This document shows, piece by piece, positions 7,531-20,690 of a DNA stretch of 54,632 nucleotides. The translations under genes and the position numbers were made by a program. The notes beneath the pieces were generated by a model. That model did no database searches. It was not told where the DNA came from and saw only the letters and a list, made by a program, of their open reading frames with translations. This DNA is from Candidatus Roizmanbacteria bacterium RIFCSPHIGHO2_02_FULL_37_13b (lineage in GTDB: Bacteria > Patescibacteriota > Microgenomatia > UBA1406 > HO2-37-13b): the NCBI GenBank assembly GCA_001789395.1, contig MFZK01000014.1, positions 113,130-167,761 on the forward strand, given 5' to 3'. Positions within the stretch are counted from its first letter, which is position 1. Each line of letters begins with the position of its first letter.

Positions 7531-7992
7531 ATGCTAAATAAAGTAATTTTAACCAAAGAAGGTTTCGAAAAATTAAATCAAGAGCTAGATGTCTTGAAAA
7601 ATCAAAAAAGACCTCAAGCAGTAGAGACTTTAAAAAAGGCCCGTGAAATGGGTGATTTGTCAGAAAATAACGCCTATACCAGTGCTAAGGAAGAATTAGG
7701 ATTTGTCGATAGTCGAATCTTAGAACTTGAAGACAAATTAAATAATGCTCAAATAATGGAAGAAAATAACAATTCTTCTCATGTTGTAATTGGTAGTATT
7801 GTCGATGTTTCGTCTGACAATCAAGTATTTACATATACTATTGTGAGTCAAGAAGAGTCAGATCTTCAACACAACAAGATTTCTAATAAATCTCCTTTAG
7901 GTATGTCACTTATGGGTAAAAAAAAGAATGATATTGTTGATGTAGTTACACCGATCAATGTCGATCGCTACAAAATAGTGAGTATTAAATAA
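7531..7992 (+). CDS. greA: transcription elongation factor GreA
   Basis: 153 aa. It has an N-terminal coiled-coil (LTKEGFEKLNQELDVLK...GDLSENNAYTSAKEE) and a C-terminal FKBP-like domain. Confidence 0.92.
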   Translation: MLNKVILTKEGFEKLNQELDVLKNQKRPQAVETLKKAREMGDLSENNAYTSAKEELGFVDSRILELEDKLNNAQIMEENNNSSHVVIGSIVDVSSDNQVFTYTIVSQEESDLQHNKISNKSPLGMSLMGKKKNDIVDVVTPINVDRYKIVSIK

Positions 7993-8653
7993 CCTGACTT
8001 TTCCCCAGAGATTTATTTAGAACCGAAAATGCTATGTCTGTTTGTTTGCTGTCGAGAACAATTGTAAATTCAGTATATGTAGAAACACTGTCGATGACAT
8101 TAATGTTTTGCCATGCAAGTTGTTTTAATATCGCATAATGTACACCGGGAGTTTTGACGGTATTTTCGGGTAGCTTAATCGTGATTGAGGAAAGGTTCTT
8201 TAAAATCGACACAAGATCTTCTTCTTTAAAAATATTTCTAATATCATTTTCAATGATGGAACTGCCGAAAAGCGTCGTCTCAAATATTCCATGCGTTATA
8301 GTCAAGAATGTATTTTTGCTTTTTTCTATTTTCTTTAATAATTTAGCATGTTTATAAACTAAGGTGTCAGAATTCGTAAAAGTATATTCAATCAAATTAG
8401 ATCGTACGGTAATGTCACCAAGCTGACGCAACGTTTGTGAGAGATTCGATCTATCTTTTGACATGTTTATATTCTGCCGTTTTAGAGCCATGATTATGGC
8501 TCCAAGTTTTATTTTCTTAAACAATTCAGATTCAATATATGGTTTGATATATCGTGCCAATGAAGATAGATTAATAAGTCGTTTTTCCAATGCTTCTTCA
8601 ATGTAGGGCGTCGTTTGAATATATCGATTGACTATCTGTGATATGGTTAACAT
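7985..8653 (-). CDS. hypothetical protein with a C-terminal ACT-like (ACT_7-type) domain
   Basis: 222 aa. The C-terminal segment PGVHYAILKQLAWQNINVIDSVSTYTEFTIVLDSKQ resembles ACT-type small-ligand binding folds. It is divergent from the lysine operon. The functional call is tentative. Confidence 0.45.
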   Translation of the reverse strand: MLTISQIVNRYIQTTPYIEEALEKRLINLSSLARYIKPYIESELFKKIKLGAIIMALKRQNINMSKDRSNLSQTLRQLGDITVRSNLIEYTFTNSDTLVYKHAKLLKKIEKSKNTFLTITHGIFETTLFGSSIIENDIRNIFKEEDLVSILKNLSSITIKLPENTVKTPGVHYAILKQLAWQNINVIDSVSTYTEFTIVLDSKQTDIAFSVLNKSLGKSQVI

Positions 8654-8702
8654 GTTAATAATTTAACATTTTATATAAAAAAAGTCAAGTTTATATATAA
8701 AT

Positions 8703-8731
8703 TTGACAAATAAAGATAACATCAATAAAAT
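8703..8731 (+). promoter_or_regulatory. sigma70-like promoter of the lysine operon (TTGACA-17 nt-TAAAAT)
   Basis: TTGACA at 8703-8708, a 17-nt spacer, then TAAAAT at 8726-8731. It lies about 30 nt upstream of the lysW ATG. Confidence 0.45.
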
Positions 8732-8761
8732 ACTGCTAATTTAGAAGTTTTTATAAAACGC

Positions 8762-8935
8762 ATGTCAACAAATTGCCCTATTTGTGATGCTAACCTGGAA
8801 ATTCAGGACAATATTGAAGCAAGCGAAGTTATTTCTTGTTCGGACTGCAATAACCAACTGGTTGTCGCTGAAAAAAAAGAAGATAGAGTGATCCTTGAAG
8901 AAGCGCCGGAGGTAGAAGAGGACTGGGGAGAGTAA
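8762..8935 (+). CDS. lysW: LysW, alpha-aminoadipate/glutamate amino-group carrier protein
   Basis: 57-aa ORF, below the ORF-track cutoff, translated by hand: MSTNCPICDANLEIQDNIEASEVISCSDCNNQLVVAEKKEDRVILEEAPEVEEDWGE. It has a CxxC...CxxC zinc ribbon and the hallmark acidic C-terminus EDWGE, and lies directly upstream of lysX. Confidence 0.85.
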   Translation: MSTNCPICDANLEIQDNIEASEVISCSDCNNQLVVAEKKEDRVILEEAPEVEEDWGE

Positions 8936-8939
8936 GGAT

Positions 8940-9785
8940 ATGGTTATTGGTTTATTACATACAACAATTAGGACTGATGAGAAATTGCTGATTGAAGCTG
9001 CGAAAAAAAGAAACGTTAAAATGATGCTGATTGATGTTCGAGAATCAGCTTTTTTACCGTCCATTCTTTACAATTTCGATGTGGTTTTGGAGCGCTGCGT
9101 ATCAACAACCAAAGGTAATTATGCTATTTCATTTTTTGAGTCCCTAAACATACCGGTGGTTAACTCATCACGAGTTGCAGCTATATGCGAAGATAAATTT
9201 TTAACATCTCTAGCACTTTATAAAAATAAAGTTAAAGAGCCACAATTTGCTATGGTTTTTAATATTGATCAGGCTGTCATTACGATTGAAAAGATGGGTG
9301 GTTATCCTGTAGTTATAAAACCAACAAAAGGATCATGGGGACGACTGTTGGCAAAAGTAAATGATAGCGATGCCTTGGAAACAATTTTAGAACACAAAAC
9401 AGTTTTAGGCTCACCACAGCATAAAGCATTTTATATTCAGCAATACATTGATAAAGCAGGTGTTGATATTAGAGCATTTGTAATTGATGGTGTGGTTATC
9501 TCGGCCATTTCACGTCGAAGTGATCACTGGATTACTAACACAGCACGGGGAGGTAGTGTTGAAAACTATCATGTAACGCAATCACTTCAAGATATTTGTA
9601 AATCTGCAAGCTATGCCGTAGGTGGAGGAGTATTAGCTATTGATTTAATGGAGACAGATAGTGGTTATTTAGTCAATGAAATCAACCACACTATGGAATT
9701 TAAAAATAGTGAAATTCCAACGGGAGTTAGTATTTCTGGTGCTATTATCGATTATTGTTTAAAAATTATAAATAAAAAATGTTAG
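8940..9785 (+). CDS. lysX: LysX, RimK-type ATP-grasp ligase (alpha-aminoadipate--LysW ligase)
   Basis: 281-aa ATP-grasp protein of RimK/LysX size and pattern, immediately after lysW. Confidence 0.85.
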   Translation: MVIGLLHTTIRTDEKLLIEAAKKRNVKMMLIDVRESAFLPSILYNFDVVLERCVSTTKGNYAISFFESLNIPVVNSSRVAAICEDKFLTSLALYKNKVKEPQFAMVFNIDQAVITIEKMGGYPVVIKPTKGSWGRLLAKVNDSDALETILEHKTVLGSPQHKAFYIQQYIDKAGVDIRAFVIDGVVISAISRRSDHWITNTARGGSVENYHVTQSLQDICKSASYAVGGGVLAIDLMETDSGYLVNEINHTMEFKNSEIPTGVSISGAIIDYCLKIINKKC

Positions 9786-9871
9786 TAACCAGTTTTTTGA
9801 GGAACCATCTGTTTGAGTCCCGACATTTCAATAGGGACGAGTTTGGTACCGGAAAAAAATTGGTTACTAAC
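9781..9871. repeat. 91-nt extended imperfect hairpin between lysX and lysY
   Basis: The outer stem GTTAGTAACCA(G)TTTTTT (9781-9798) pairs with AAAAAA(T)TGGTTACTAAC (9854-9871). Two inner helices are GGAACCA/TGGTACC (6 of 7) and GTCCC/GGGAC. The structure includes the lysX stop codon and ends 8 nt before the lysY ATG. Confidence 0.6.
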
Positions 9872-9878
9872 TTAAAAC

Positions 9879-10928
9879 ATGAGAAATAAAATTAGCGTTT
9901 CTATTCTAGGCGGGTCAGGGTATGCGGGTGGTGAATTGCTTCGGATTTTATTACAACATCCTAATGTTGAAGTATCCCAAGTAACATCTCGTAAGTTTGA
10001 AGGACAATTCGTCACGGTAGTACACCCTAATTTGAGAAAACGAACATCACTTTCCTTTATTGGTCCTGAAAAACTTGAGCGTTGTGATTTATTATTCGTG
10101 GCGCTACCTAATGGAGAATCAATGAATCAGGTGATGCAACTGATTAATAAAGCTAAAAAAATAATTGATCTCGGTGCTGATTTTAGATTACACAATAAAT
10201 CAATTTTTGAAGAATGGTATAAACAACAACATATTAGTCCTCATCTATTAACGAAATTTGTCTATGGAATTTGTGAACTCCATCGATCAGAAATTAAAAA
10301 ATCCCGATTCGTAGCTTGTGCGGGCTGTGAAGCAACTGTGTCCATTCTAGCCCTTTATCCATTGATTAAACATAATTTGATAGAAAGCAAGATTATAATC
10401 GACGCCAAAATGTCTAGTTCTCAAGCAGGGGTTTCTCCTACTCTTTCTTCTCATCATCCGGAGCGTGCTGGTGCAGTGCGTTCGTACATGCCGACCGGAC
10501 ACCGTCATGCTGCTGAGATAATCCAGGAATTATCAATTAATGGTTTTATACCTGATATCGCAATTTCAGCTACGGCAATTGATATGGTTAGGGGACTTTT
10601 AGTGACTTGTCATGTGAGTCCCAAACGGAATATCACGGAAAAAAATATTTGGTCTTCTTATCGTGAAGTATATAGAAACGAGCCATTTATCCGTATTGTG
10701 AAAGAAAAACGAGGTTTATATCGTTACCCCGAGCCAAAAATTCTTCAAGGCACAAACTATTGTGATATTGGATTTGAAATGGATAGTAGGTCAAACAGGC
10801 TTGTAATTATTGCAGCTATAGACAATTTAGTTAAAGGCACTGCAGGACAAGCAGTCCAAGCAATGAACGTGATGTATGGTTATGAAGAAATCACTGCTTT
10901 AGAATTTACCGGTCTTCATCCCATCTAA
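9879..10928 (+). CDS. lysY: LysY, [LysW]-aminoadipyl-phosphate reductase (ArgC family)
   Basis: 349 aa. It has the N-terminal NAD-binding motif GGSGYAGGELLR and an active-site Cys in ACAGCEAT. Confidence 0.85.
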   Translation: MRNKISVSILGGSGYAGGELLRILLQHPNVEVSQVTSRKFEGQFVTVVHPNLRKRTSLSFIGPEKLERCDLLFVALPNGESMNQVMQLINKAKKIIDLGADFRLHNKSIFEEWYKQQHISPHLLTKFVYGICELHRSEIKKSRFVACAGCEATVSILALYPLIKHNLIESKIIIDAKMSSSQAGVSPTLSSHHPERAGAVRSYMPTGHRHAAEIIQELSINGFIPDIAISATAIDMVRGLLVTCHVSPKRNITEKNIWSSYREVYRNEPFIRIVKEKRGLYRYPEPKILQGTNYCDIGFEMDSRSNRLVIIAAIDNLVKGTAGQAVQAMNVMYGYEEITALEFTGLHPI

Positions 10929-10933
10929 GTAAT

Positions 10934-12148
10934 ATGTTTAAAGGAATTATTGATACAACGCTCCGGGATGGTCAACAGTCGCCTCTTCTTTTTGATAGCT
11001 ACAAATATAGTTTTAGTTTAAGTGATAAGCAAAAACTACTTTTTGGACTACTAAATTTGGGTGTTAAATATATTGAATTTTTTTCTCCGGTTGTTTCAAA
11101 TCACGAAAAAAAAGAATTTATTGAAATCAAAAAAAATATTAAAGCGATTGATAAAAGGACGAAACTGTTAGCACATTGTCGATGTAATTTAAATGATATA
11201 AACGAGGCAATAACGGTAGGTTTTGACGGATTAAATTTATATTTAAACGGCACAAAAGACGCAAGACTCCATAGTTACAACAAAAATTTATCGACGCTAA
11301 AAGCAGATATCAAAAAAATCATTACGGAAATCAGATCAAAATATCCTGGTCTATATCTTCGTTTCAGTATAGAAGACGCCTTTAGAACAAAAAAACAAGA
11401 CTTATATTCAATTTTTGATGAAATATATGGATTTGTGAATACTTTAGGTATTCCAGATACCGTCGGGATTGCTTCGCCGGATATTGTCAAAGTTTTGGTT
11501 TCTGATTTAACGCATCGCTATCCACATGTTGATTTGGAATGTCATTTCCATAATGATAGGGGACTTGCGCTAATAAATACAATCATTGCCATAGAATCGG
11601 GCGTTTCATATGCTGATACGTCAATTTGGGGGTTAGCAGAGCGGTCAGGGATTGCATCGACCACAGGCGTCCTGTTTAATTTATTTCAAACTGATAAAAA
11701 TTTGGTTAAGGATTACAATTTAGCCCTTTGTTATCCTTTAAACGTCTTAATGGGTTCAATATTGCACATGCAGGTTCCCTATAATGAACCCGTATCAATC
11801 ACTAATAGAACGCATATTGCCGGCGTTCATCATAAAGCTGTTTTAAATTCGACAACAATTTATGAAGCTCATCACTTGGAGCGATTCGGTGTGACCAAAA
11901 ACCAATTACTTCTTGGTCCTTTGACCGGCTGGAATTTAATTTACTACTATCTAAAAGAATTTGAATTCTTTGATATTTCTCAAGAACAAGCCAAAAGAAT
12001 TGCGTTGGAGTTTAAGAACCAGGCAAAAAAACTAAATGAGAGATTTCGACCCGAGATATTGCTGATCAATATTGCTAATCAATATCAATTAAAAAAAATT
12101 AACATTAAAAATCAGTATCTAGAGAGAAGATTAGAGAACTTGTCGTAA
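10934..12148 (+). CDS. homocitrate synthase (HCS / 2-isopropylmalate synthase family)
   Basis: Has the DTTLRDGQQSP motif and the HxH metal site (ECHFHNDRGLA). It sits within the AAA pathway cluster. Confidence 0.85.
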   Translation: MFKGIIDTTLRDGQQSPLLFDSYKYSFSLSDKQKLLFGLLNLGVKYIEFFSPVVSNHEKKEFIEIKKNIKAIDKRTKLLAHCRCNLNDINEAITVGFDGLNLYLNGTKDARLHSYNKNLSTLKADIKKIITEIRSKYPGLYLRFSIEDAFRTKKQDLYSIFDEIYGFVNTLGIPDTVGIASPDIVKVLVSDLTHRYPHVDLECHFHNDRGLALINTIIAIESGVSYADTSIWGLAERSGIASTTGVLFNLFQTDKNLVKDYNLALCYPLNVLMGSILHMQVPYNEPVSITNRTHIAGVHHKAVLNSTTIYEAHHLERFGVTKNQLLLGPLTGWNLIYYYLKEFEFFDISQEQAKRIALEFKNQAKKLNERFRPEILLINIANQYQLKKINIKNQYLERRLENLS

Positions 12149-12150
12149 AT

Positions 12151-13410
12151 ATGGCTCAAACAATCGCCGAGAAAATATTTTCTGAACATGTAGGTAAAAC
12201 AGTCTTTGCTGGTGACTATGTCATCGCTGATCTTGATTTAATCATGGCTCATGATACGACATGTGCTTGGGCTATTGAGCCTTTTTATAAAATTGCCAAA
12301 AAAGTATTTGACAAATCAAAAATTTTTATTCCGTTCGATCATGCCTTCCCGGCCCCAAATGTGAAAATGGCAAGTCTTCAAGCCAAAATCCGAAAATTTG
12401 CAGATCAGCAAGGGGTGCCAATCACGATCGATGGCGTTTGTCATCAGATCATGTCGGAGCGGTTCATATACCCGGGAGATCTTATTTTAGGCGCCGACTC
12501 ACACAGTCCGACAGGTGGTGGTCTTGGCGGCCTGACCATTGGCGTTGGTTCAACAGATGCGGCAATTGCAATGGCGTCAGGCAAATGCTGGTTTCAGGTC
12601 CCAAAGACAATTCGAATTGAGATAACAGGTAAGTTACCTAAGGGAGTATTTTCAAAAGATGTAGTCTTACAGGTTGCAAAACAAATCGGACCAGATGGTG
12701 GAAATTATCGAGTACTTGAATATGGTGGAGATACAATAAGAAATTTTGATGTACCTGCACGGTTAACATTGACCAATATGTCTGCGGAAATGGGAGCAAA
12801 AGCGGCGATTGTTGAACCCGACAAGAAAACTGCTGAATATCTAAAAGACAATATGCGCGGCAGGAAATTCGATGAAGACGTGCTTAAAAGCGATCCTGAT
12901 TGCAGATACGAAAAAACGCTTCATTTTAATGTTTCAGAACTGTCACCACAAATTGCCAAGCCGCCCGACATTGATAGAGTTGTAAAAGTTTCAGAATTAG
13001 AGAAAAAAAAGATCAATGTTGATCAAGTGTTTATTGGCTCATGTACAAATTGTAGGATTGAAGACTTGGATGTCGTCAGTAATTTATGGAGAAATCGCAA
13101 ACTTAATAAAAAAGTAAGAACAATAATTACACCGGCATCAAAAAAGGTAATGATGCAGGCGCTGTCAAAAGGGTATGTTGATTTTTTTATGAAACTCGGA
13201 GCCATTATATTAAATCCCGGATGCGGTCCGTGTTTGGGCCGTCATGGTGGTGTATTAGCTGATAATGAAGTATGCGTATCGACAAGCAACAGAAATTTTA
13301 CCGGAAGAATGGGTAGTCCCAAGGCGAAGATCTACCTGGCCAGTCCGGCAACAGCTGCGGCATCAGCCATAACAGGATATATAACTGACCCGAGACAATT
13401 TATAAGTTAA
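12151..13410 (+). CDS. lysT: homoaconitase large subunit (LeuC/HacA family)
   Basis: Aconitase-family motifs are present: DLIMAHD, GADSHSPTGG, and the Fe-S cysteines in IGSCTNCR and PGCGPCLG. Confidence 0.85.
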   Translation: MAQTIAEKIFSEHVGKTVFAGDYVIADLDLIMAHDTTCAWAIEPFYKIAKKVFDKSKIFIPFDHAFPAPNVKMASLQAKIRKFADQQGVPITIDGVCHQIMSERFIYPGDLILGADSHSPTGGGLGGLTIGVGSTDAAIAMASGKCWFQVPKTIRIEITGKLPKGVFSKDVVLQVAKQIGPDGGNYRVLEYGGDTIRNFDVPARLTLTNMSAEMGAKAAIVEPDKKTAEYLKDNMRGRKFDEDVLKSDPDCRYEKTLHFNVSELSPQIAKPPDIDRVVKVSELEKKKINVDQVFIGSCTNCRIEDLDVVSNLWRNRKLNKKVRTIITPASKKVMMQALSKGYVDFFMKLGAIILNPGCGPCLGRHGGVLADNEVCVSTSNRNFTGRMGSPKAKIYLASPATAAASAITGYITDPRQFIS

Positions 13411-13549
13411 ATCAATTTTTATGGATAGAATATGTCTGTTCGCAAATGCATCAAGCTCATCAAACTACATAATGAACCCGAGAGCTTTACCTCGCGTGAC
13501 ATTTGCTCACATCCATATTCTTCACCATATTTAATTTTATTGTTAGAAC

Positions 13550-14053
13550 ATGAACTGGATATTTGGAGATAACATAAATACTGATTTGATTACACCAGGT
13601 AGGTATAATATCACGACTGATCCTTATGAGTTGGCGAGTATTGTTTTCATTGAACATCGACCTGATTTTAGAAATAAAGTAAAAAAAGGAGATTTTGTTT
13701 TAGCCGGTCAGAATTTTGGCTGTGGTTCATCTCGAGAGACTGCAGTCATCGCCCTAAAATATTGCGGAATTGAAGCTGTTTTGGCCAAGTCATTCGCACG
13801 AATATACTACAGAAATTGTATGAATATTGGACTTTTAGCAATCCAGGTTGATACGAGTAAAATTTCACAAAAAGATAATCTGGAGCTTGATTTAAAGAAT
13901 CTAAATCTAATTAATAGGTCAAAAAAAACCAAACAAGATTTGATCATTCCCCCAATGATGATGACTCTATATCAGAGTAACGGAATTATCTCTTACATCA
14001 GGAAAAATGGACTGAATAGTTTATCAAAATTAGTGGATAGTATCAATATATGA
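13550..14053 (+). CDS. lysU: homoaconitase small subunit (LeuD/HacB family)
   Basis: The motifs FGDNINTDLITPG and GQNFGCGSSRE are typical of archaeal-type small subunits. Confidence 0.85.
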   Translation: MNWIFGDNINTDLITPGRYNITTDPYELASIVFIEHRPDFRNKVKKGDFVLAGQNFGCGSSRETAVIALKYCGIEAVLAKSFARIYYRNCMNIGLLAIQVDTSKISQKDNLELDLKNLNLINRSKKTKQDLIIPPMMMTLYQSNGIISYIRKNGLNSLSKLVDSINI

Positions 14054-15045
14054 AACTTATTAAACTTTGTGCCATAGGAGGTGATGGTATAGGACCCGAT
14101 GTATTAGAATCGGGACTTAAAGTTTTAAAAAAATTAGTACCGGAAATTGAAATAAAATTTGAAATAGCTGGGTATGGAGCATATCAAAAACATGGTAGAT
14201 CACTACCAGATCATACGCTTCAAACCTGCCGTAATTCTGATGTCATTCTTTTTGGCGCAGTGACCACCCCTCCTCTAATCAAAAATTATCAAAGCCCAAT
14301 AATCCGAATAAGACAAGAATTGAATTTATATGCCAATGTCAGGCCTTTTTTTTCATTACCGATAAAGGACACCTGTCGTGATATTGATTTATTAATAATT
14401 CGTGAAAATACTCAAGGACTATATAGCGGTATTGAAAAGAAAATTGATGGTGGTTTTTCTGCAGAAAGGATTATTACTAAAAAAGCATCCGAGAGAATTC
14501 TTTCTTTTGCATTCTCATATGCACAAAAAAGAAGAAAAAAAGTAACAGTGATACATAAAGCCAATATACTGAGGTTAACTGATGGACTTTTTTTGTCATT
14601 AGCAAAAAAAATGGCCAAAAAATATCCTCAGGTTGAATGCAATGACATGTTGGTCGATACCTGTGCTTTTCAACTCATCAAAAACCCTCAATCTTTTGAT
14701 GTCATTGTTACTACCAATATGTTTGGCGATATTTTATCTGATGAAGTTGCAGGACTTATTGGTGGACTTGGTGTTTGCGCATCGGCAAATATAGGTCCCC
14801 ATAATGCTCTTTTTGAGCCAGTGCATGGATCTGCTCCGAAATATGCAGGTCAGGATAAGGTTAATCCGATGGCAATGTTATTTGCAGTTTGCATGATGCT
14901 TGATTATTTGTCGTTGCGTCAAGAAGCAGATTTGTTGAGAAAAACAACTATTACAGCTATAAAAAAAGGAAATGTTACCTATGACCTTGGAGGAAAGTAT
15001 AAAACATCAGAAGTAGTTAATTATATTATGAATAATATCAAATAA
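14050..15045 (+). CDS. homoisocitrate dehydrogenase (isocitrate/isopropylmalate dehydrogenase family)
   Basis: 331 aa. It carries beta-decarboxylating dehydrogenase motifs (IGGDGIGPDV, NLYANVRP, NMFGDILSDE). Confidence 0.85.
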   Translation: MKLIKLCAIGGDGIGPDVLESGLKVLKKLVPEIEIKFEIAGYGAYQKHGRSLPDHTLQTCRNSDVILFGAVTTPPLIKNYQSPIIRIRQELNLYANVRPFFSLPIKDTCRDIDLLIIRENTQGLYSGIEKKIDGGFSAERIITKKASERILSFAFSYAQKRRKKVTVIHKANILRLTDGLFLSLAKKMAKKYPQVECNDMLVDTCAFQLIKNPQSFDVIVTTNMFGDILSDEVAGLIGGLGVCASANIGPHNALFEPVHGSAPKYAGQDKVNPMAMLFAVCMMLDYLSLRQEADLLRKTTITAIKKGNVTYDLGGKYKTSEVVNYIMNNIK

Positions 15046-15048
15046 TTA

Positions 15049-15861
15049 ATGACTAGTCAGAAATTTTTAATAAAGGTTGGTGGAGGAGAAAAAATTAATT
15101 GGCATTATATTGCCAAAGATTTAGTTGGGATTACTAAAAAAGCAAAAATAGTGATGGTCCATGGAGCTAATGCAATAAGAGACGAAATTGCTAAAAAAAT
15201 GGGAGTACCTACGAGGATTATTACTTCACCTTCGGGTGTATCAAGTGTATATACAGACAGCCTAGCACTCGATATTTTTTTGATGAGTTATGCAGGATTA
15301 GCCAACAAACGTATTGTTTCATTAATGCAAAAATCAGGTCTGAATGCAGTTGGTTTATCTGGTGTCGATGGTAGATTATGGCAAGCTAAGAGAAAGCAGC
15401 ATACGTTTTCGGTTGAGAATGGAAAAACAAAACTAATTAAAAATAACCTTACAGGTCGAGTTGAAGAAATTAATGTGAAATTGATAAATACTCTTTTAAA
15501 AAATTATTTTTTACCCGTTATTTGTCCTCCGGCTATTGACGAAGATAGTCAAATAGTTAATATCGATGGCGATATCGCTGCAGTAAGAACTGCTGCAGCT
15601 CTCGGTATTAAAAAAATTGTTTTTTTGTTCGAAAGTCCGGGTTTGCTTAGACTATATCCAGATGAAAAGTCCTTAATAAATAAAGTGGAGAAAGATAATA
15701 TTGATAAGTATTTACCCATGGTTGTAGGCAGAATGAAAAAGAAAATATTAGCCGTGGAGAAAGCATTCGATTTAGGAATGCAAACCGTTTATTTTGGTGA
15801 TGGTCGCTATGAAAATCCGATTACAAATATTTTGGCGGGAAAAGGTACGATTATTAGTTAA
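15049..15861 (+). CDS. lysZ: LysZ, [LysW]-aminoadipate kinase (acetylglutamate kinase family)
   Basis: 270-aa amino-acid kinase fold (IKVGGGE, VHGANA). Confidence 0.85.
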   Translation: MTSQKFLIKVGGGEKINWHYIAKDLVGITKKAKIVMVHGANAIRDEIAKKMGVPTRIITSPSGVSSVYTDSLALDIFLMSYAGLANKRIVSLMQKSGLNAVGLSGVDGRLWQAKRKQHTFSVENGKTKLIKNNLTGRVEEINVKLINTLLKNYFLPVICPPAIDEDSQIVNIDGDIAAVRTAAALGIKKIVFLFESPGLLRLYPDEKSLINKVEKDNIDKYLPMVVGRMKKKILAVEKAFDLGMQTVYFGDGRYENPITNILAGKGTIIS

Positions 15862-15875
15862 AAGATTTTCTATTT

Positions 15876-17069
15876 ATGAAAAATTACTTATTTTTGGAAA
15901 AACAAGTATTGCTTCCTCTTTATCCACAGCGAGGACTGGTTTTAGTACGTGGACAAGGCGTTCATCTTTATGATATAAACAACAAAGAATATCTTGATAT
16001 GATGAGTAACTACGGCGTTAACATCTTCGGACACACAAATCAATTTATTTTAAACGCAATTTCATATCAGCTTAAAAAAATCACGAATCTACATGGAAGT
16101 TTTACATCAAGTATGCGTGTTGAGGCTGCTGACAGATTAATCAAAATGTGCAAATTGCCAGAGTATCAGATATATTTTTCCAATTCAGGTACAGAGGCAA
16201 TGGAAGCGGCTTTAAAATTTGCTGTTTTGACAACCGGAAAAAAGAAATTCATTGTAATGAAAAATAATTATCACGGTAAGACGTTGGGGGCACTATCGAC
16301 TATGGTTGGATCTAAATATCAAAAACCCTTTTTACCTCTTCTTTGGGATATGGTTGAGACAGAATTTGGTGACATCAAGGATTTAACAAAAAAAATTTCC
16401 TCTGAATTTGCTGCAGTAGTTTTAGAACCGATACAAGGAGAAGGGGGAATTCATGTACCCAGCGGTGATTATTTAAGAGATGTTCAACGTCTATGTCAAA
16501 GTTGCAATGTACTCATGATTGTAGATGAAATTCAAACTGGAGCTGGTAGAACCGGTGAATTTCTATGCAGTAGTTATAGTCGGATTGAACCCGATATCAT
16601 TGCTTTGGGAAAGGGAATTGGTGGAGGTTTGCCGGTTGGGGTAACTTTAGTAAGTAGACAAGTTTCACAAAAAATAATTCGGGGAATTCATAGTTCGACT
16701 TTTGGAGGAAATCCATTGACCTGTGCCGGTATTTGCGCAAGTCTTGAATATATGATCGAAAACGATATTTTTTCACATGTCAAAAAAATCGGTGATTACT
16801 TTATTAACCAACTTATGAGTATTAAATCACCCCATATTAAACAGGTTAGAGGTAAGGGTCTAATGATTGGCGTTGAATTGGATCAACCTGTTACTCCAGT
16901 TTTAAAATTCATGCAGGATAACGGAATATTAGTAATACCAGGAGGAGATATGGTGGTTCGGTTCTTGCCACCATATATTATCGAGAAAAAACATGTTGAC
17001 AAGACAATTAATGTTTTTAACAAGGCTTTAAAATCGTTAATTGTTACCAGTAATATCAAATCCGCTTGA
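15876..17069 (+). CDS. lysJ: LysJ, class III aminotransferase ([LysW]-aminoadipate semialdehyde / acetylornithine aminotransferase family)
   Basis: Motifs SNSGTEAMEAALK, DEIQTGAGRTG and the PLP-lysine context ALGKGIGGG are present. Confidence 0.85.
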   Translation: MKNYLFLEKQVLLPLYPQRGLVLVRGQGVHLYDINNKEYLDMMSNYGVNIFGHTNQFILNAISYQLKKITNLHGSFTSSMRVEAADRLIKMCKLPEYQIYFSNSGTEAMEAALKFAVLTTGKKKFIVMKNNYHGKTLGALSTMVGSKYQKPFLPLLWDMVETEFGDIKDLTKKISSEFAAVVLEPIQGEGGIHVPSGDYLRDVQRLCQSCNVLMIVDEIQTGAGRTGEFLCSSYSRIEPDIIALGKGIGGGLPVGVTLVSRQVSQKIIRGIHSSTFGGNPLTCAGICASLEYMIENDIFSHVKKIGDYFINQLMSIKSPHIKQVRGKGLMIGVELDQPVTPVLKFMQDNGILVIPGGDMVVRFLPPYIIEKKHVDKTINVFNKALKSLIVTSNIKSA

Positions 17070-17084
17070 TTACATACATCCAGC

Positions 17085-17142
17085 GTCATTCCCGCGAAGG
17101 CGGGAATCTATTAGATAGTTTCCGCATCAAGTGCGGAATGAC
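17085..17142. repeat. 58-nt double-hairpin element with GTCATTCC / GGAATGAC termini (ORF-less member of the GTCAT...ATGAC family)
   Basis: GTC-ATTCCCGC-gaag-GCGGGAAT-C, an 11-nt spacer, then TTCCGCA-tcaag-TGCGGAA-TGAC. The outermost 8 nt are perfect reverse complements. It lies between lysJ and the amidotransferase-like gene. Confidence 0.6.
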
Positions 17143-17190
17143 AAGGTGATTAACCGGATTTAATATAACAGTGTAGTTCACTAAAAATAT

Positions 17191-17838: not shown

Positions 17839-20174
17839 TCTGGGTCGATAGGATGGTTGAAGAAATAAAAAAAAGAAATCTAGCAGTAGAATGGATAGAT
17901 GATATGAAGACTCCTTCAGGCAGAATTCATGTTGGTTCACTTCTTGGTGTTGTTTATCATGATCTTATTTATAAGGCATTAATTGAAAAAGGTATTAATG
18001 CAAGTTTCAGTTATGTATTTGAAGATCATGATCCGATGGATGGTATGCCGCCATTTTTAGACGCCAAAAAATGGGGAAAATATATGGGTATGCAGTTGTA
18101 TAAAATACCATCCCCGGAAAAAGGTTATAAAAACTTTGGGCAATATTTTGCTCTGGAATTCAAACATGTTTTTGAAAAAATTAACTGTCACCCACAAATA
18201 ATTTGGGCATCGGACTTGTATCTTTCCGGGAAGATGAATGATGCTGTAACAACGGCTTTGAATAATGCATCTACGATTAGAGAAATTTATCTGCGACATA
18301 CCAAAAGAAAGCTAGCCGATGATTGGTATCCTTTTAATGTTGTTTGTGAAAAATGCCAGAAGATTGGTACGACGAGAGTATTTAATTGGGATGGTGTACT
18401 GGTTCACTATCGATGTATGAAAGATTTGGTTTCTTGGGCTGTTGGATGTGGTTATGAAGGTAAAACTTCGCCATATGACGGGCGGGGGAAAATGCCATGG
18501 AAGGTCGAATGGCCAGCTAAGTGGAAAGTCATTGGCGTCACTGTTGAAGGCGCCGGTAAAGATCACATGTCTAAGGGGGGTTCACATGATATTTCATCAG
18601 ACATATCTCAACAAGTGTTTAAGTATTCTGTGCCATACTCTTTTATTTATGAATGGTTTACGATTGGTGGAAAAAAAATGTCATCATCTAAAGGAGTCGG
18701 ATCATCAGCAAAAGAAGTTTCAAAGATACTACCACCAGAGCTTTTACGTTTTTTAATTGTTCGAACTCCAGTTGAATCTCATCTGGATTTTAATCCCTAT
18801 GGGGACACAATTTTGAATTTATTTGATGAATATGACAGATGCATGAATGCATATTTTGCAAAAAAGGAAAATAAAATTCCCGAGGGAAAGGAAGGTGAAG
18901 TATTATTGGATTTTGCTAGGATTATTGAGCTGTCTGCTGTATCTTCATTGCCAAAAAAAAGAGTAATCTTACCAAGATTTAGAACTGTTGTTAATTTGAT
19001 AAAAAATGCCATAGGGATGGGTAATGACCTGTTTGTTCAAATATATAATGTTTACGAAAGGCAAAAAGGAGATAAATTGTCAACTGAAGAAAAAGAAATA
19101 TTAGATAAGAGAATAAAATACGCCAAAATATATTTAGAAAAATATGCGACACAATCATCGGGCGATTTAAAAATCGCCCCTACTGCAACATTATCTATGG
19201 TGCAAACGCAATTTTTGCAACAATTATCAGAAAAATTATCTGATAAATTAAAAACCAAAGATGAAATTCAAAATATTATCTTTGATATCCTCAAAAAAAA
19301 TAATTTGTCTCCGCGCGAAATTTTTAAACCTTTTTATCAAATATTAAACGGCAGAGATTTTGGTCCAAAAGCAGGAGAGTTAATATTGGAGATGGGGATA
19401 GGGGAGGCTAAAAGAAAGTTAATTGGCGCCTTAAATAACAAGAGTAATTCAAAATCAAATATTAAATTTGAATTTTCAAATCTTAATGATTCTTCAGTAT
19501 TCAGTATTGATCAATCAGTCAGTGAAAAGTTTCCGTCGATTTGTATTGGTATCGCAATAATTAAAAACGTAAAGATCGAAAAGACAAATGAAAAATTAAT
19601 GGCGGACATTAATAATTTTGTGGGTGAACAAAAAAACTTAACAAATGGAATCATCGGATCCTATCATGAAATACAAAGTTATCGGAAGTTATATAAGGCA
19701 ACTGGAATCGATTGGCATTCACGTCGGCCATCACCGGAAGCATTGTTACGACGAATAGCGTTAAATAAAGGAATTTATAGTGTTAACAATTGCGTGGATG
19801 CATACAATCTTGTAGTTATGAAATACCGAGTATCCTCTGGAGCATTTGATTTGAATAATATTAAATTACCAACGAAATTAAGATTAGCAACAGGAAACGA
19901 AAAAATTTTATTATTGGGTGATAAAGAAGGAATTAATTATAAACAAGGGGAGATTGCCTATTTCGATCAAATCGGTGGATATAATATTGATTTTAATTAT
20001 CGGGATAGCCAAAGAACTGCAGTAACAAATGAGACGAGAGATTTATTAATAAATGTTGATGGGATTTTTGATATTACCCGTGGGCAGGTAGAGAAAACAT
20101 TAAAAGAAACTATTGAAACTATAATTAAATACTGTGGGGGGAAGGTGGAGGTGGTTGGGATAGTTGAGGCCTAA
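17835..20174 (+). CDS. class I lysyl-tRNA synthetase with a C-terminal B3/4-like domain extension
   Basis: The class I LysRS signatures PSGRIHVGS (HIGH-like) and KMSSSKG (KMSKS) are present. About 235 extra C-terminal residues (NNCVDAYNLVVMKYRVSSGAFDLNNI...NYRDSQRTAVTNETRDLL) resemble the PheRS-beta B3/4 domain and COG3382 proteins. Confidence 0.88.
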   Translation: MIWVDRMVEEIKKRNLAVEWIDDMKTPSGRIHVGSLLGVVYHDLIYKALIEKGINASFSYVFEDHDPMDGMPPFLDAKKWGKYMGMQLYKIPSPEKGYKNFGQYFALEFKHVFEKINCHPQIIWASDLYLSGKMNDAVTTALNNASTIREIYLRHTKRKLADDWYPFNVVCEKCQKIGTTRVFNWDGVLVHYRCMKDLVSWAVGCGYEGKTSPYDGRGKMPWKVEWPAKWKVIGVTVEGAGKDHMSKGGSHDISSDISQQVFKYSVPYSFIYEWFTIGGKKMSSSKGVGSSAKEVSKILPPELLRFLIVRTPVESHLDFNPYGDTILNLFDEYDRCMNAYFAKKENKIPEGKEGEVLLDFARIIELSAVSSLPKKRVILPRFRTVVNLIKNAIGMGNDLFVQIYNVYERQKGDKLSTEEKEILDKRIKYAKIYLEKYATQSSGDLKIAPTATLSMVQTQFLQQLSEKLSDKLKTKDEIQNIIFDILKKNNLSPREIFKPFYQILNGRDFGPKAGELILEMGIGEAKRKLIGALNNKSNSKSNIKFEFSNLNDSSVFSIDQSVSEKFPSICIGIAIIKNVKIEKTNEKLMADINNFVGEQKNLTNGIIGSYHEIQSYRKLYKATGIDWHSRRPSPEALLRRIALNKGIYSVNNCVDAYNLVVMKYRVSSGAFDLNNIKLPTKLRLATGNEKILLLGDKEGINYKQGEIAYFDQIGGYNIDFNYRDSQRTAVTNETRDLLINVDGIFDITRGQVEKTLKETIETIIKYCGGKVEVVGIVEA

Positions 20175-20192
20175 TAATATATTTTTTCTAAT

Positions 20193-20226
20193 GTCATTCT
20201 GGTAAGCCGAAGGCGCATCCAGAATC
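20193..20226. repeat. left hairpin module (GTC-ATTCTGG ... CCAGAAT-C)
   Basis: The 7-bp outer stem ATTCTGG/CCAGAAT encloses taaGCCgaaGGCgcat. Confidence 0.6.
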
Positions 20227-20237
20227 ATAAATTACTG

Positions 20238-20534
20238 ATGAAAAAAGGTTTTGTCTACATCTTGGCAAATAATCGACCAACTTTATATACTGGGGTAACA
20301 AATAATATCGCAAAGCGCGTTTTTGAACATAAATCTGGAAGAGGATCAATGTTTACAAAACGATACGCGATTCACAAATTAGTATACTATAAATATTTAG
20401 AAGATATTAAGAGTGCAATTATTAGAGAAAAACAAATAAAGGATCTGAATCGCAACGAAAAAATTAACTTAATTAAATTAATGAATCCGTCTTTTAAAGA
20501 TTTGTTCGTAGAGGTGAGAGATAAATTTCGATAG
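20238..20534 (+). CDS. GIY-YIG nuclease family protein (small YhbQ/UPF0213-like)
   Basis: 98 aa. It has GFVYIL...LYTGVTNNIAKRVFEHKSG (GIY...YIG, Arg, Glu) and a later REKQIK...N segment. Confidence 0.85.
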   Translation: MKKGFVYILANNRPTLYTGVTNNIAKRVFEHKSGRGSMFTKRYAIHKLVYYKYLEDIKSAIIREKQIKDLNRNEKINLIKLMNPSFKDLFVEVRDKFR

Positions 20535-20540
20535 ACATCG

Positions 20541-20581
20541 ATTCTGGAGTCTACCGCCTTCGGCGGGATCCCCAGAATGAC
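20541..20581. repeat. right hairpin module (ATTCTGG ... CCAGAAT-GAC)
   Basis: The outer stem ATTCTGG/CCAGAAT encloses the inner hairpin CCGCC-ttc-GGCGG. Confidence 0.6.
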
Positions 20582-20589
20582 TGATGTTT

Positions 20590-20683
20590 GTCATGCTGAC
20601 TTGTCCAGTATCGGAAAGGTATGATTTTAATGTTGTTGATTCTGGACGCGTCCCGCGTCAAATGCGGGACTTGCCAGAACGAC
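20590..20683. repeat. degenerate tandem copy of the double-hairpin element
   Basis: GTCATGCTGACTTGTCCAGTATC is a decayed version of the hairpin at 34047-34071. After a 25-nt spacer comes ATTCTGG-acgc-GTCCCGC-gtcaaat-GCGGGAC-ttg-CCAGAAC-GAC. Confidence 0.45.
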
Positions 20684-20690
20684 GGTTTAA

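Follow-up and report, generated by a model that had tools for sequence, protein, structure and literature searches.

A LysW-type alpha-aminoadipate lysine operon in a Roizmanbacteria-like genome, with a candidate substitute for LysK and a candidate ACT-domain regulator

The stretch of DNA analyzed here, referred to as the window, comprises 54,632 nucleotides (nt) of contig MFZK01000014.1 (positions 113,130 to 167,761, forward strand; assembly GCA_001789395.1, Candidatus Roizmanbacteria bacterium RIFCSPHIGHO2_02_FULL_37_13b). It carries at 8762-17069 nine intact open reading frames (ORFs), all on the plus strand, in the order lysW-lysX-lysY-hcs-hacA-hacB-hicdh-lysZ-lysJ (Table 1), a gene set for lysine synthesis via alpha-aminoadipate attached to the carrier protein LysW. 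Each of the nine proteins matched its expected family in NCBIfam and Pfam (E values from 1e-10 to 1e-161), and curated cut-offs were passed by LysX, LysZ, HacA, and HacB. Intergenic distances stay between -4 and 14 nt at all but two junctions, where spacers of 93 and 139 nt can form hairpins, and the front end of the pathway, hcs-hacAB-hicdh, sits between lysY and lysZ. The original prediction, made by a model from the sequence and its translated ORFs, had described nine co-directional, close-packed genes with two larger structured spacers, which is what we find, yet its boundaries have to be redrawn on both sides. Position 8703, taken there as the beginning of the genes, is the -35 box of the promoter, and the unit does not end with lysJ at 17069 but continues through a third hairpin spacer into a gene for an N-terminal nucleophile (Ntn) hydrolase and then the class I lysyl-tRNA synthetase gene lysS, up to position 20174.

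Table 1. Features of the lys locus, in window coordinates (aa, amino acids).
Feature	Position	Strand	Evidence or remark
ACT-like gene, 222 aa, divergent	7985-8653	-	N-terminal four-helix domain plus tandem ACT pair (AlphaFold pLDDT 87.6)
Palindrome TGTTAA-N4-TTAACA, candidate operator	8653-8668	.	16 bp, perfect; at start of ACT-like gene
lys operon promoter, TTGACA-17-TAAAAT	8703-8731	+	11/12 sigma-70 match, top site in scan
lysW, amino-group carrier protein, 57 aa	8762-8935	+	PF21344 1.6e-10, NF041070 1.6e-16
lysX, LysW:alpha-aminoadipate ligase (ATP-grasp)	8940-9785	+	TIGR02144 288 bits (cut-off 275.6)
Hairpin spacer, lysX/lysY junction	9786-9878	+	-33.2 kcal/mol, z -4.9
lysY, [LysW]-aminoadipyl-phosphate reductase (ArgC family)	9879-10928	+	TIGR01850 392 bits
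hcs, homocitrate synthase	10934-12148	+	PDB: homocitrate synthases, 1e-53 to 5e-51
hacA, homoaconitase large subunit	12151-13410	+	TIGR01343 521 bits (cut-off 385.7)
Hairpin spacer, hacA/hacB junction	13411-13549	+	z -3.7
hacB, homoaconitase small subunit	13550-14053	+	PDB best 2pkp (M. jannaschii homoaconitase small subunit), 4e-42
hicdh, homoisocitrate dehydrogenase (beta-decarboxylating dehydrogenase)	14050-15045	+	NCBIfam top AksF, AksF2, 389 bits, below cut-offs
lysZ, [LysW]-aminoadipate kinase	15049-15861	+	NF010659 equivalog 294 bits (cut-off 223)
lysJ, [LysW]-aminoadipate semialdehyde aminotransferase (class III)	15876-17069	+	TIGR00707 384 bits
Hairpin spacer 3' of lysJ, 121 nt	17070-17190	+	Inserted copy of dispersed palindromic repeat, z -3.95
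Cys2 Ntn hydrolase, class II amidotransferase-like, EgtC-like, 215 aa	17191-17838	+	Starts Met-Cys; weak GATase_4, EgtC matches
lysS, class I lysyl-tRNA synthetase with C-terminal B3_4 domain, 779 aa	17835-20174	+	TIGR00467 355 bits, PF03483

LysW combines a zinc ribbon of the CxxC...CxxC type (CPIC...CSDC) with the C-terminal tail EDWGE. For the ligase, a 2025 study of Thermus LysX (PMC12998189) gives five-position signatures: F-I-T-NS for aminoadipate, I-Y-V-GF for the glutamate or ArgX type, and Y-I-T-NA for the bifunctional Thermococcus enzyme. When aligned with the solved proteins of Thermus, Thermococcus, and Sulfolobus, our LysX has F180, I190, T201, N256, and S257 at these positions, which corresponds to the aminoadipate type, and in a PDB search the protein scored 252 bits against Thermus LysX versus 141 bits against Sulfolobus ArgX. 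LysY is the sole ArgC-family member that tblastn finds in the genome. LysZ, which clears the monofunctional equivalog model, is scored under their cut-offs by the bifunctional kinase models, and the LysJ models assign 318-321 bits to the lysJ product, below the equivalog cut-offs.

In the front end, the synthase matched isopropylmalate synthases in the PDB far more weakly (1e-19 to 1e-20) than homocitrate synthases, and it retains His81, Arg143, and Ser145, equivalent to S. pombe His103, Arg163, and Ser165 that bind the distal carboxylate of 2-oxoglutarate. Its score lies under the TIGR02146 cut-off, and it is 56% identical to a synthase of Calidithermus terrae whose gene belongs to a lys cluster of the Thermus type, alongside the genes for homoaconitase, LysW, LysX, and LysY. 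The substrate loop of HacB reads YNIT, resembling YNLT of the Pyrococcus horikoshii protein 1v7l. For the dehydrogenase, NAD-dependent isocitrate dehydrogenase (4e-84) and Thermus homoisocitrate dehydrogenase (3e-79) were matched in the PDB; its assignment as a homoisocitrate dehydrogenase rests on the operon context and on its being the lone member of its family in the genome (tblastn). The gene identities originally proposed, for LysW with its EDWGE tail, LysX, LysY, LysZ, and LysJ as well as for the front-end enzymes, are thus borne out by the NCBIfam, Pfam, and PDB matches, with the specificity of the dehydrogenase assigned by context. The same applies to the proposal of a LysW route of the Thermus/archaeal type, in line with the family matches, the synthase pocket, the LysX signature, and the Calidithermus cluster.

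The original prediction had also stated that LysK, the M20-type hydrolase that releases lysine from LysW, is not encoded in the operon. This is correct and extends to the whole genome, in which none of three LysK references yielded a tblastn match and the only M20 enzyme is a 503-aa dipeptidase of the PepD type. The downstream Cys2 Ntn hydrolase most likely takes over this step as a [LysW]-lysine hydrolase substituting for LysK, an assignment based on gene context. Among 62 related loci containing lysZ and lysJ, 42 carry the Ntn gene alone, 15 LysK alone, none both, and five neither, with at least two of these five ending at a contig edge; the two genes were thus mutually exclusive in all 57 informative loci. 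In the loci devoid of the Ntn gene, all eight ORFs tested passed NF003367, the [LysW]-lysine hydrolase equivalog. It is because of this mutual exclusion, together with the LysK equivalogs in Ntn-less loci, that we consider the Ntn protein the likely release enzyme. The gene is found inside lysW clusters of the candidate phyla radiation (CPR), Acidobacteriota, Ignavibacteriota, Binatia, and archaea, and a search of the available literature found no publication that ties LysW or aminoadipate to an Ntn enzyme in place of LysK. The start of lysS overlaps the end of the Ntn gene by 4 nt, and at least five further CPR loci likewise have lysS after the lys operon. In several family-mates, the match to lysyl-tRNA synthetase ends after about 535 residues, and a stop codon precedes the B3_4 part.

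The assembly comprises 1.16 Mb in 23 contigs with 35% GC, 93.5% completeness, and 0.16% contamination. CPR genomes are not known to encode ribosomal protein L30. A search with PF00327 (L30) gave no match in this genome, whereas 13 of 14 control genomes matched, and the closest relatives of LysX, of the synthase, and of the locus as a whole are metagenome-assembled genomes (MAGs) of Roizmanbacteria, Microgenomates, Pacebacteria, and Gottesmanbacteria. The host as a CPR bacterium, Roizmanbacteria-like, therefore holds, as does the earlier impression of a small CPR-like genome. Second copies of the nine genes were not found by tblastn across the genome, which means that there is no separate ArgB/C/D, LeuA/C/D/B, aconitase, isocitrate dehydrogenase, or ArgX. 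The search for diaminopimelate (DAP) pathway genes proposed with the original prediction returned no marker: DapA/DHDPS (PF00701), DapF (PF01678), and the LysA-type decarboxylase (PF02784) had no match in the genome, and at 93.5% completeness the absence of the DAP pathway is probable. The lys operon is the genome's only visible lysine route. In this genome devoid of DAP-pathway markers, the MurE motif (L142, G000:C17 1456-2682) is E-D-Y-R, compared with DNPR in DAP-adding enzymes; it was considered as a possible indicator of lysine versus DAP in the cell wall and set aside as uninformative.

The 2-oxoadipate aminotransferase LysN, likewise predicted to be unrecognizable in the operon, was indeed not found there, and profile and PDB searches of the genome revealed no LysN-type enzyme either. 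Nine matches to class I/II aminotransferases were obtained in the genome, eight of them above the Pfam cut-off and two of them strong. One of the latter adjoins the his locus and is taken as HisC by position; the other, on contig C4, resembles aspartate (AspAT) and aromatic (ArAT) aminotransferases, namely the Pyrococcus aromatic and aspartate enzymes, and not LysN. The C4 enzyme as a conserved partner in place of LysN was rejected, as just 12 weak relatives of it occur in the order, two of them in LysX genomes.

It is conceivable that the LysW module has two functions, like that of Thermococcus kodakarensis, producing lysine and also converting glutamate to ornithine that feeds ornithine carbamoyltransferase (OTC), ArgG, and ArgH. 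The genome encodes OTC next to carbamate kinase as well as ArgG and ArgH (contigs C10, L010; C13, L011; and C14:72876-74177), with no arginine deiminase found, no ArgB, ArgC, or ArgD besides LysZ, LysY, and LysJ, and no other route to ornithine. In Thermus, LysW-Glu intermediates also serve as substrates of LysZ and LysY, with about 60% and 15-20% of the native activity, respectively (PMC12998189), and across the order ArgG is more common in genomes with LysX (21 of 32) than in those without (65 of 191). We nevertheless regard a dual role as unlikely: LysX conforms strictly to F-I-T-NS, being neither Y-I-T-NA nor I-Y-V-GF, LysZ clears the monofunctional model only, and 60 genomes of the order possess ArgG despite lacking ArgC and LysY, including the nearest family-mate, G012. 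With ArgG present in 86 of the 223 species of the order and any ArgC or LysY in 38, ArgG and ArgH in relatives devoid of ArgC/LysY look like a salvage trait independent of internal ornithine. ArgG of our genome also has a C-terminal extension of about 120 residues that resembles the end of the large subunit of carbamoyl-phosphate synthase. If the dual role were true, a CPR cell with a 1.16-Mb genome would make its own lysine and arginine from glutamate, using a new Ntn hydrolase for release and a new ACT-domain protein for control, and the system would be the bacterial equivalent of that of Thermococcus and of the bifunctional pathway proposed as ancestral.

CPR bacteria are commonly regarded as incapable of amino-acid synthesis, and the original prediction had considered a complete lysine operon notable in such an organism. 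Judged by its sequence, the operon is intact and its host unusual, but it is a recurring minority trait. True LysX was detected in six of 401 sampled genomes of the phylum and in 32 of 223 species of the order, distributed over none of the 24 other members of the family, 30 of the 189 members of the main family, and one of nine in a third. A homoaconitase of the HacA/HacB type accompanies LysX in only about 10 of the 32 LysX species, so that the complete form is less common than LysX itself; partial clusters also occur, as in G036, with the synthase and without homoaconitase. About two thirds of the LysX genomes in the order (e.g., L067, L068, L069, and L074) have lysWXYZJ plus the Ntn gene and no homoaconitase of this type, and some of the homoaconitase-less genomes carry a divergent HMGL-like gene instead (24-31% identity). 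The same order of 11 genes recurs in other MAGs of the Roizmanbacteria type. A search of the available literature retrieved no publication that connects LysW or aminoadipate to CPR, Patescibacteria, Microgenomates, or Roizmanbacteria.

Lys genomes of other families and of the Gottesmanbacteria type show greA, in most cases the ACT gene, lysW through the Ntn gene, and then lysS, whereas in five family-mates lysS comes immediately after greA, at a distance of 29-144 nt. In the nearest family-mate (G012:C15, L156, 9181-11365), the greA-lysS slot contains an ACT-like gene, a family-less ORF of 340 aa, and a 396-aa M20 deacylase of the ArgE/DapE type. Since the slot is shared with the lys-bearing relatives and empty in the family-mates, long residence in it is favored over recent transfer, and old residence in the greA-lysS slot with repeated clean loss is the simplest account; an old transfer into or among the Microgenomates is possible.

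A recent transfer of the operon into this genome from a non-CPR donor, to be examined by LysXYZJ phylogeny according to the original prediction, would agree with the lack of LysX in the 24 other species of the family and with a synthase whose similarity to Thermales (56-57%) equals that to many Roizmanbacteria. In a concatenated LysXYZJ tree (FastTree, unrooted, built from the 80 loci closest to the query and hence from a sample biased toward it), the genome falls within a Microgenomates clade of 15 rows (support 100); this clade is sister to Acidobacteriota and has an Aminicenantes MAG nested inside, which could likewise be read as a trace of transfer, and Wirthbacteria fall elsewhere. On the other hand, the GC content of the operon (0.361, versus 0.352 for the window) is the same as that of the genome, the highest identity to any sampled locus is just 62% over the four proteins, and the lys proteins have diverged from those of the other family (61-74%) about as much as the products of flanking housekeeping genes. 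Together with the greA-(ACT)-lys-lysS position conserved in other families and Gottesmanbacteria-type genomes and the placement within the Microgenomates, these findings argue against recent acquisition, to which we assign a low probability.

As to control of the operon, the TTGAC part of the -35 box is invariant in six relatives. The lys leader of about 30 nt appeared unstructured in folding and contains no small ORF, ruling out a leader-peptide attenuator, and an Rfam scan detected no riboswitch or other known RNA at gathering threshold; only a sub-threshold FtrB match was noted, on the repeat at 17070-17190. This repeat has at least nine further partial copies on seven contigs (C4, C6, C11, C13, C14, C17, and C18) with a core of about 27-84 nt, and the sequence of the 9786-9878 spacer occurs only once in the genome. 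The three hairpin spacers are lineage-specific insertions: in relatives, the orthologous operons lack them, and the corresponding junctions measure only 0-19 nt. Within the 516 nt 3' of lysS (20175-20690), there is no ORF of at least 100 aa and no terminator-like site in the scan.

Divergently upstream of lysW lies the gene for a protein that we consider a candidate lysine-sensing regulator of the operon, based on its modeled fold and on gene context. Residues 78-220 match aspartokinase ACT regulatory domains or subunits (Foldseek E 2e-8, VIA Z 15.7), and homologs occupy the corresponding divergent position at lysW clusters in 20 loci from CPR, Acidobacteriota, Aminicenantes, and archaea. The N-terminal domain gave no significant fold match in the PDB (best E 2.5) and no recognized DNA-binding fold. 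The perfect palindrome, which lies where the gene starts and precedes the inferred transcription start of lysW by about 80 bp, occurs once in the 1.16-Mb genome, and its GTTAA..TTAACA motif is invariant across six CPR lys control regions.

Taken together, we consider it likely, judging from the sequence, that the locus encodes a functional LysW alpha-aminoadipate pathway dedicated to lysine, expressed from one promoter and with release by the Ntn hydrolase, and that this pathway is an old resident of the greA-lysS slot that was kept whole here and lost by most relatives. By analogy to the Thermus pathway, Hcs would condense acetyl-CoA with 2-oxoglutarate, and HacAB and Hicdh would carry homocitrate on to 2-oxoadipate, which an aminotransferase encoded outside the operon would convert to alpha-aminoadipate. 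LysX would then join the latter to the C-terminal Glu of LysW, the side chain would be phosphorylated by LysZ, reduced by LysY, and transaminated by LysJ, and lysine would be freed from the carrier by the Cys2 Ntn hydrolase rather than by LysK. The two glutamate-dependent transaminations would give back two molecules of 2-oxoglutarate for each one used, such that the route would need only glutamate and acetyl-CoA and no tricarboxylic acid cycle. Translation of the lys operon appears to be coupled to that of lysS, and control would probably be exerted by the divergent ACT-domain protein.

Several observations weigh against this interpretation. Hcs, Hicdh, and LysJ score under the NCBIfam equivalog cut-offs; among solved proteins, Hicdh matches an NAD-dependent isocitrate dehydrogenase best, and it has Ile where the Thermus enzyme has Arg85. 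No gene is assigned to the aminotransferase step, the C4 enzyme being un-LysN-like and showing no co-occurrence with LysX, the hydrolase role of the Ntn protein has gene context as its sole basis, and the tree carries the sampling bias mentioned above. That the middle genes instead represent LeuA/C/D/B, AksA/D/E/F, or a citrate-aconitate-isocitrate route, with the LysW genes forming an ArgX-type arginine system, is scarcely credible: these are close paralogue families, several of the top NCBIfam matches fall below their cut-offs, and Hicdh is equally near to isocitrate and homoisocitrate dehydrogenases, but the synthase ranks with homocitrate synthases and retains the Arg and Ser contacting the distal carboxylate, its subfamily recurs in the Calidithermus lysine cluster, LysX scores far higher against Thermus LysX than against ArgX, the genes are embedded in a lysW-lysJ operon ahead of lysS, and leucine synthesis drops out because neither IlvD, and with it a supply of 2-oxoisovalerate, nor LeuA/C/D/B paralogs were found in the genome. 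Specificity for lysine rather than arginine or leucine, as originally predicted, is thereby upheld by the F-I-T-NS ligase, the 2-oxoglutarate residues of the synthase, and these absences.

The pathway is a known one, and its differences from the textbook version are the last enzyme, i.e., the one for release, and the likely regulator. Compared with Thermus thermophilus (hcs, lysT/U, hicdh, lysN, lysW/X/Z/Y/J/K), our system shares the EDWGE carrier tail, the F-I-T-NS signature of LysX, and the enzyme families for nine of 11 steps, with the synthase being 56% identical to that of the related Calidithermus cluster. It differs by the Cys2 Ntn hydrolase in place of the M20 enzyme LysK, by the lack of any detected LysN-type aminotransferase, and by the organization of all genes in one operon coupled to lysS. 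The Thermus lys genes carry a leader-peptide attenuator, whereas there is none here. With the lys cluster of Thermococcus kodakarensis and Pyrococcus, our locus has in common that the synthase, homoaconitase, and dehydrogenase genes are joined with lysWXYZJ in one compact cluster, that the HacB loop is similar (YNIT versus YNLT in P. horikoshii), and that the genome encodes carbamate kinase and OTC; in contrast to that cluster, it has a LysX of the monofunctional rather than the Y-I-T-NA type and lacks LysK. LysM, a protein of the Lrp family, has an ACT-like ligand-binding domain. In Sulfolobus, it is the lysine-responsive Lrp-type activator of a LysW/LysX/ArgX system (PMC3597687), so that there, too, a small protein is encoded beside the lysW operon, the amino-acid-sensing LysM there and the candidate ACT-fold sensor here. 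The present protein differs in combining an aspartokinase-beta-like tandem ACT pair with a helical N-terminal domain, and no ArgX paralog exists in our genome.

In addition, the operon provides a compact test bed for two features that are both undescribed, namely an Ntn hydrolase replacing LysK and an aspartokinase-beta-like ACT protein beside lysW clusters in several phyla. As one self-contained amino-acid pathway that was kept while the nearest relatives lost it cleanly from the same slot, it would offer a natural comparison for the study of reductive evolution and host dependence.

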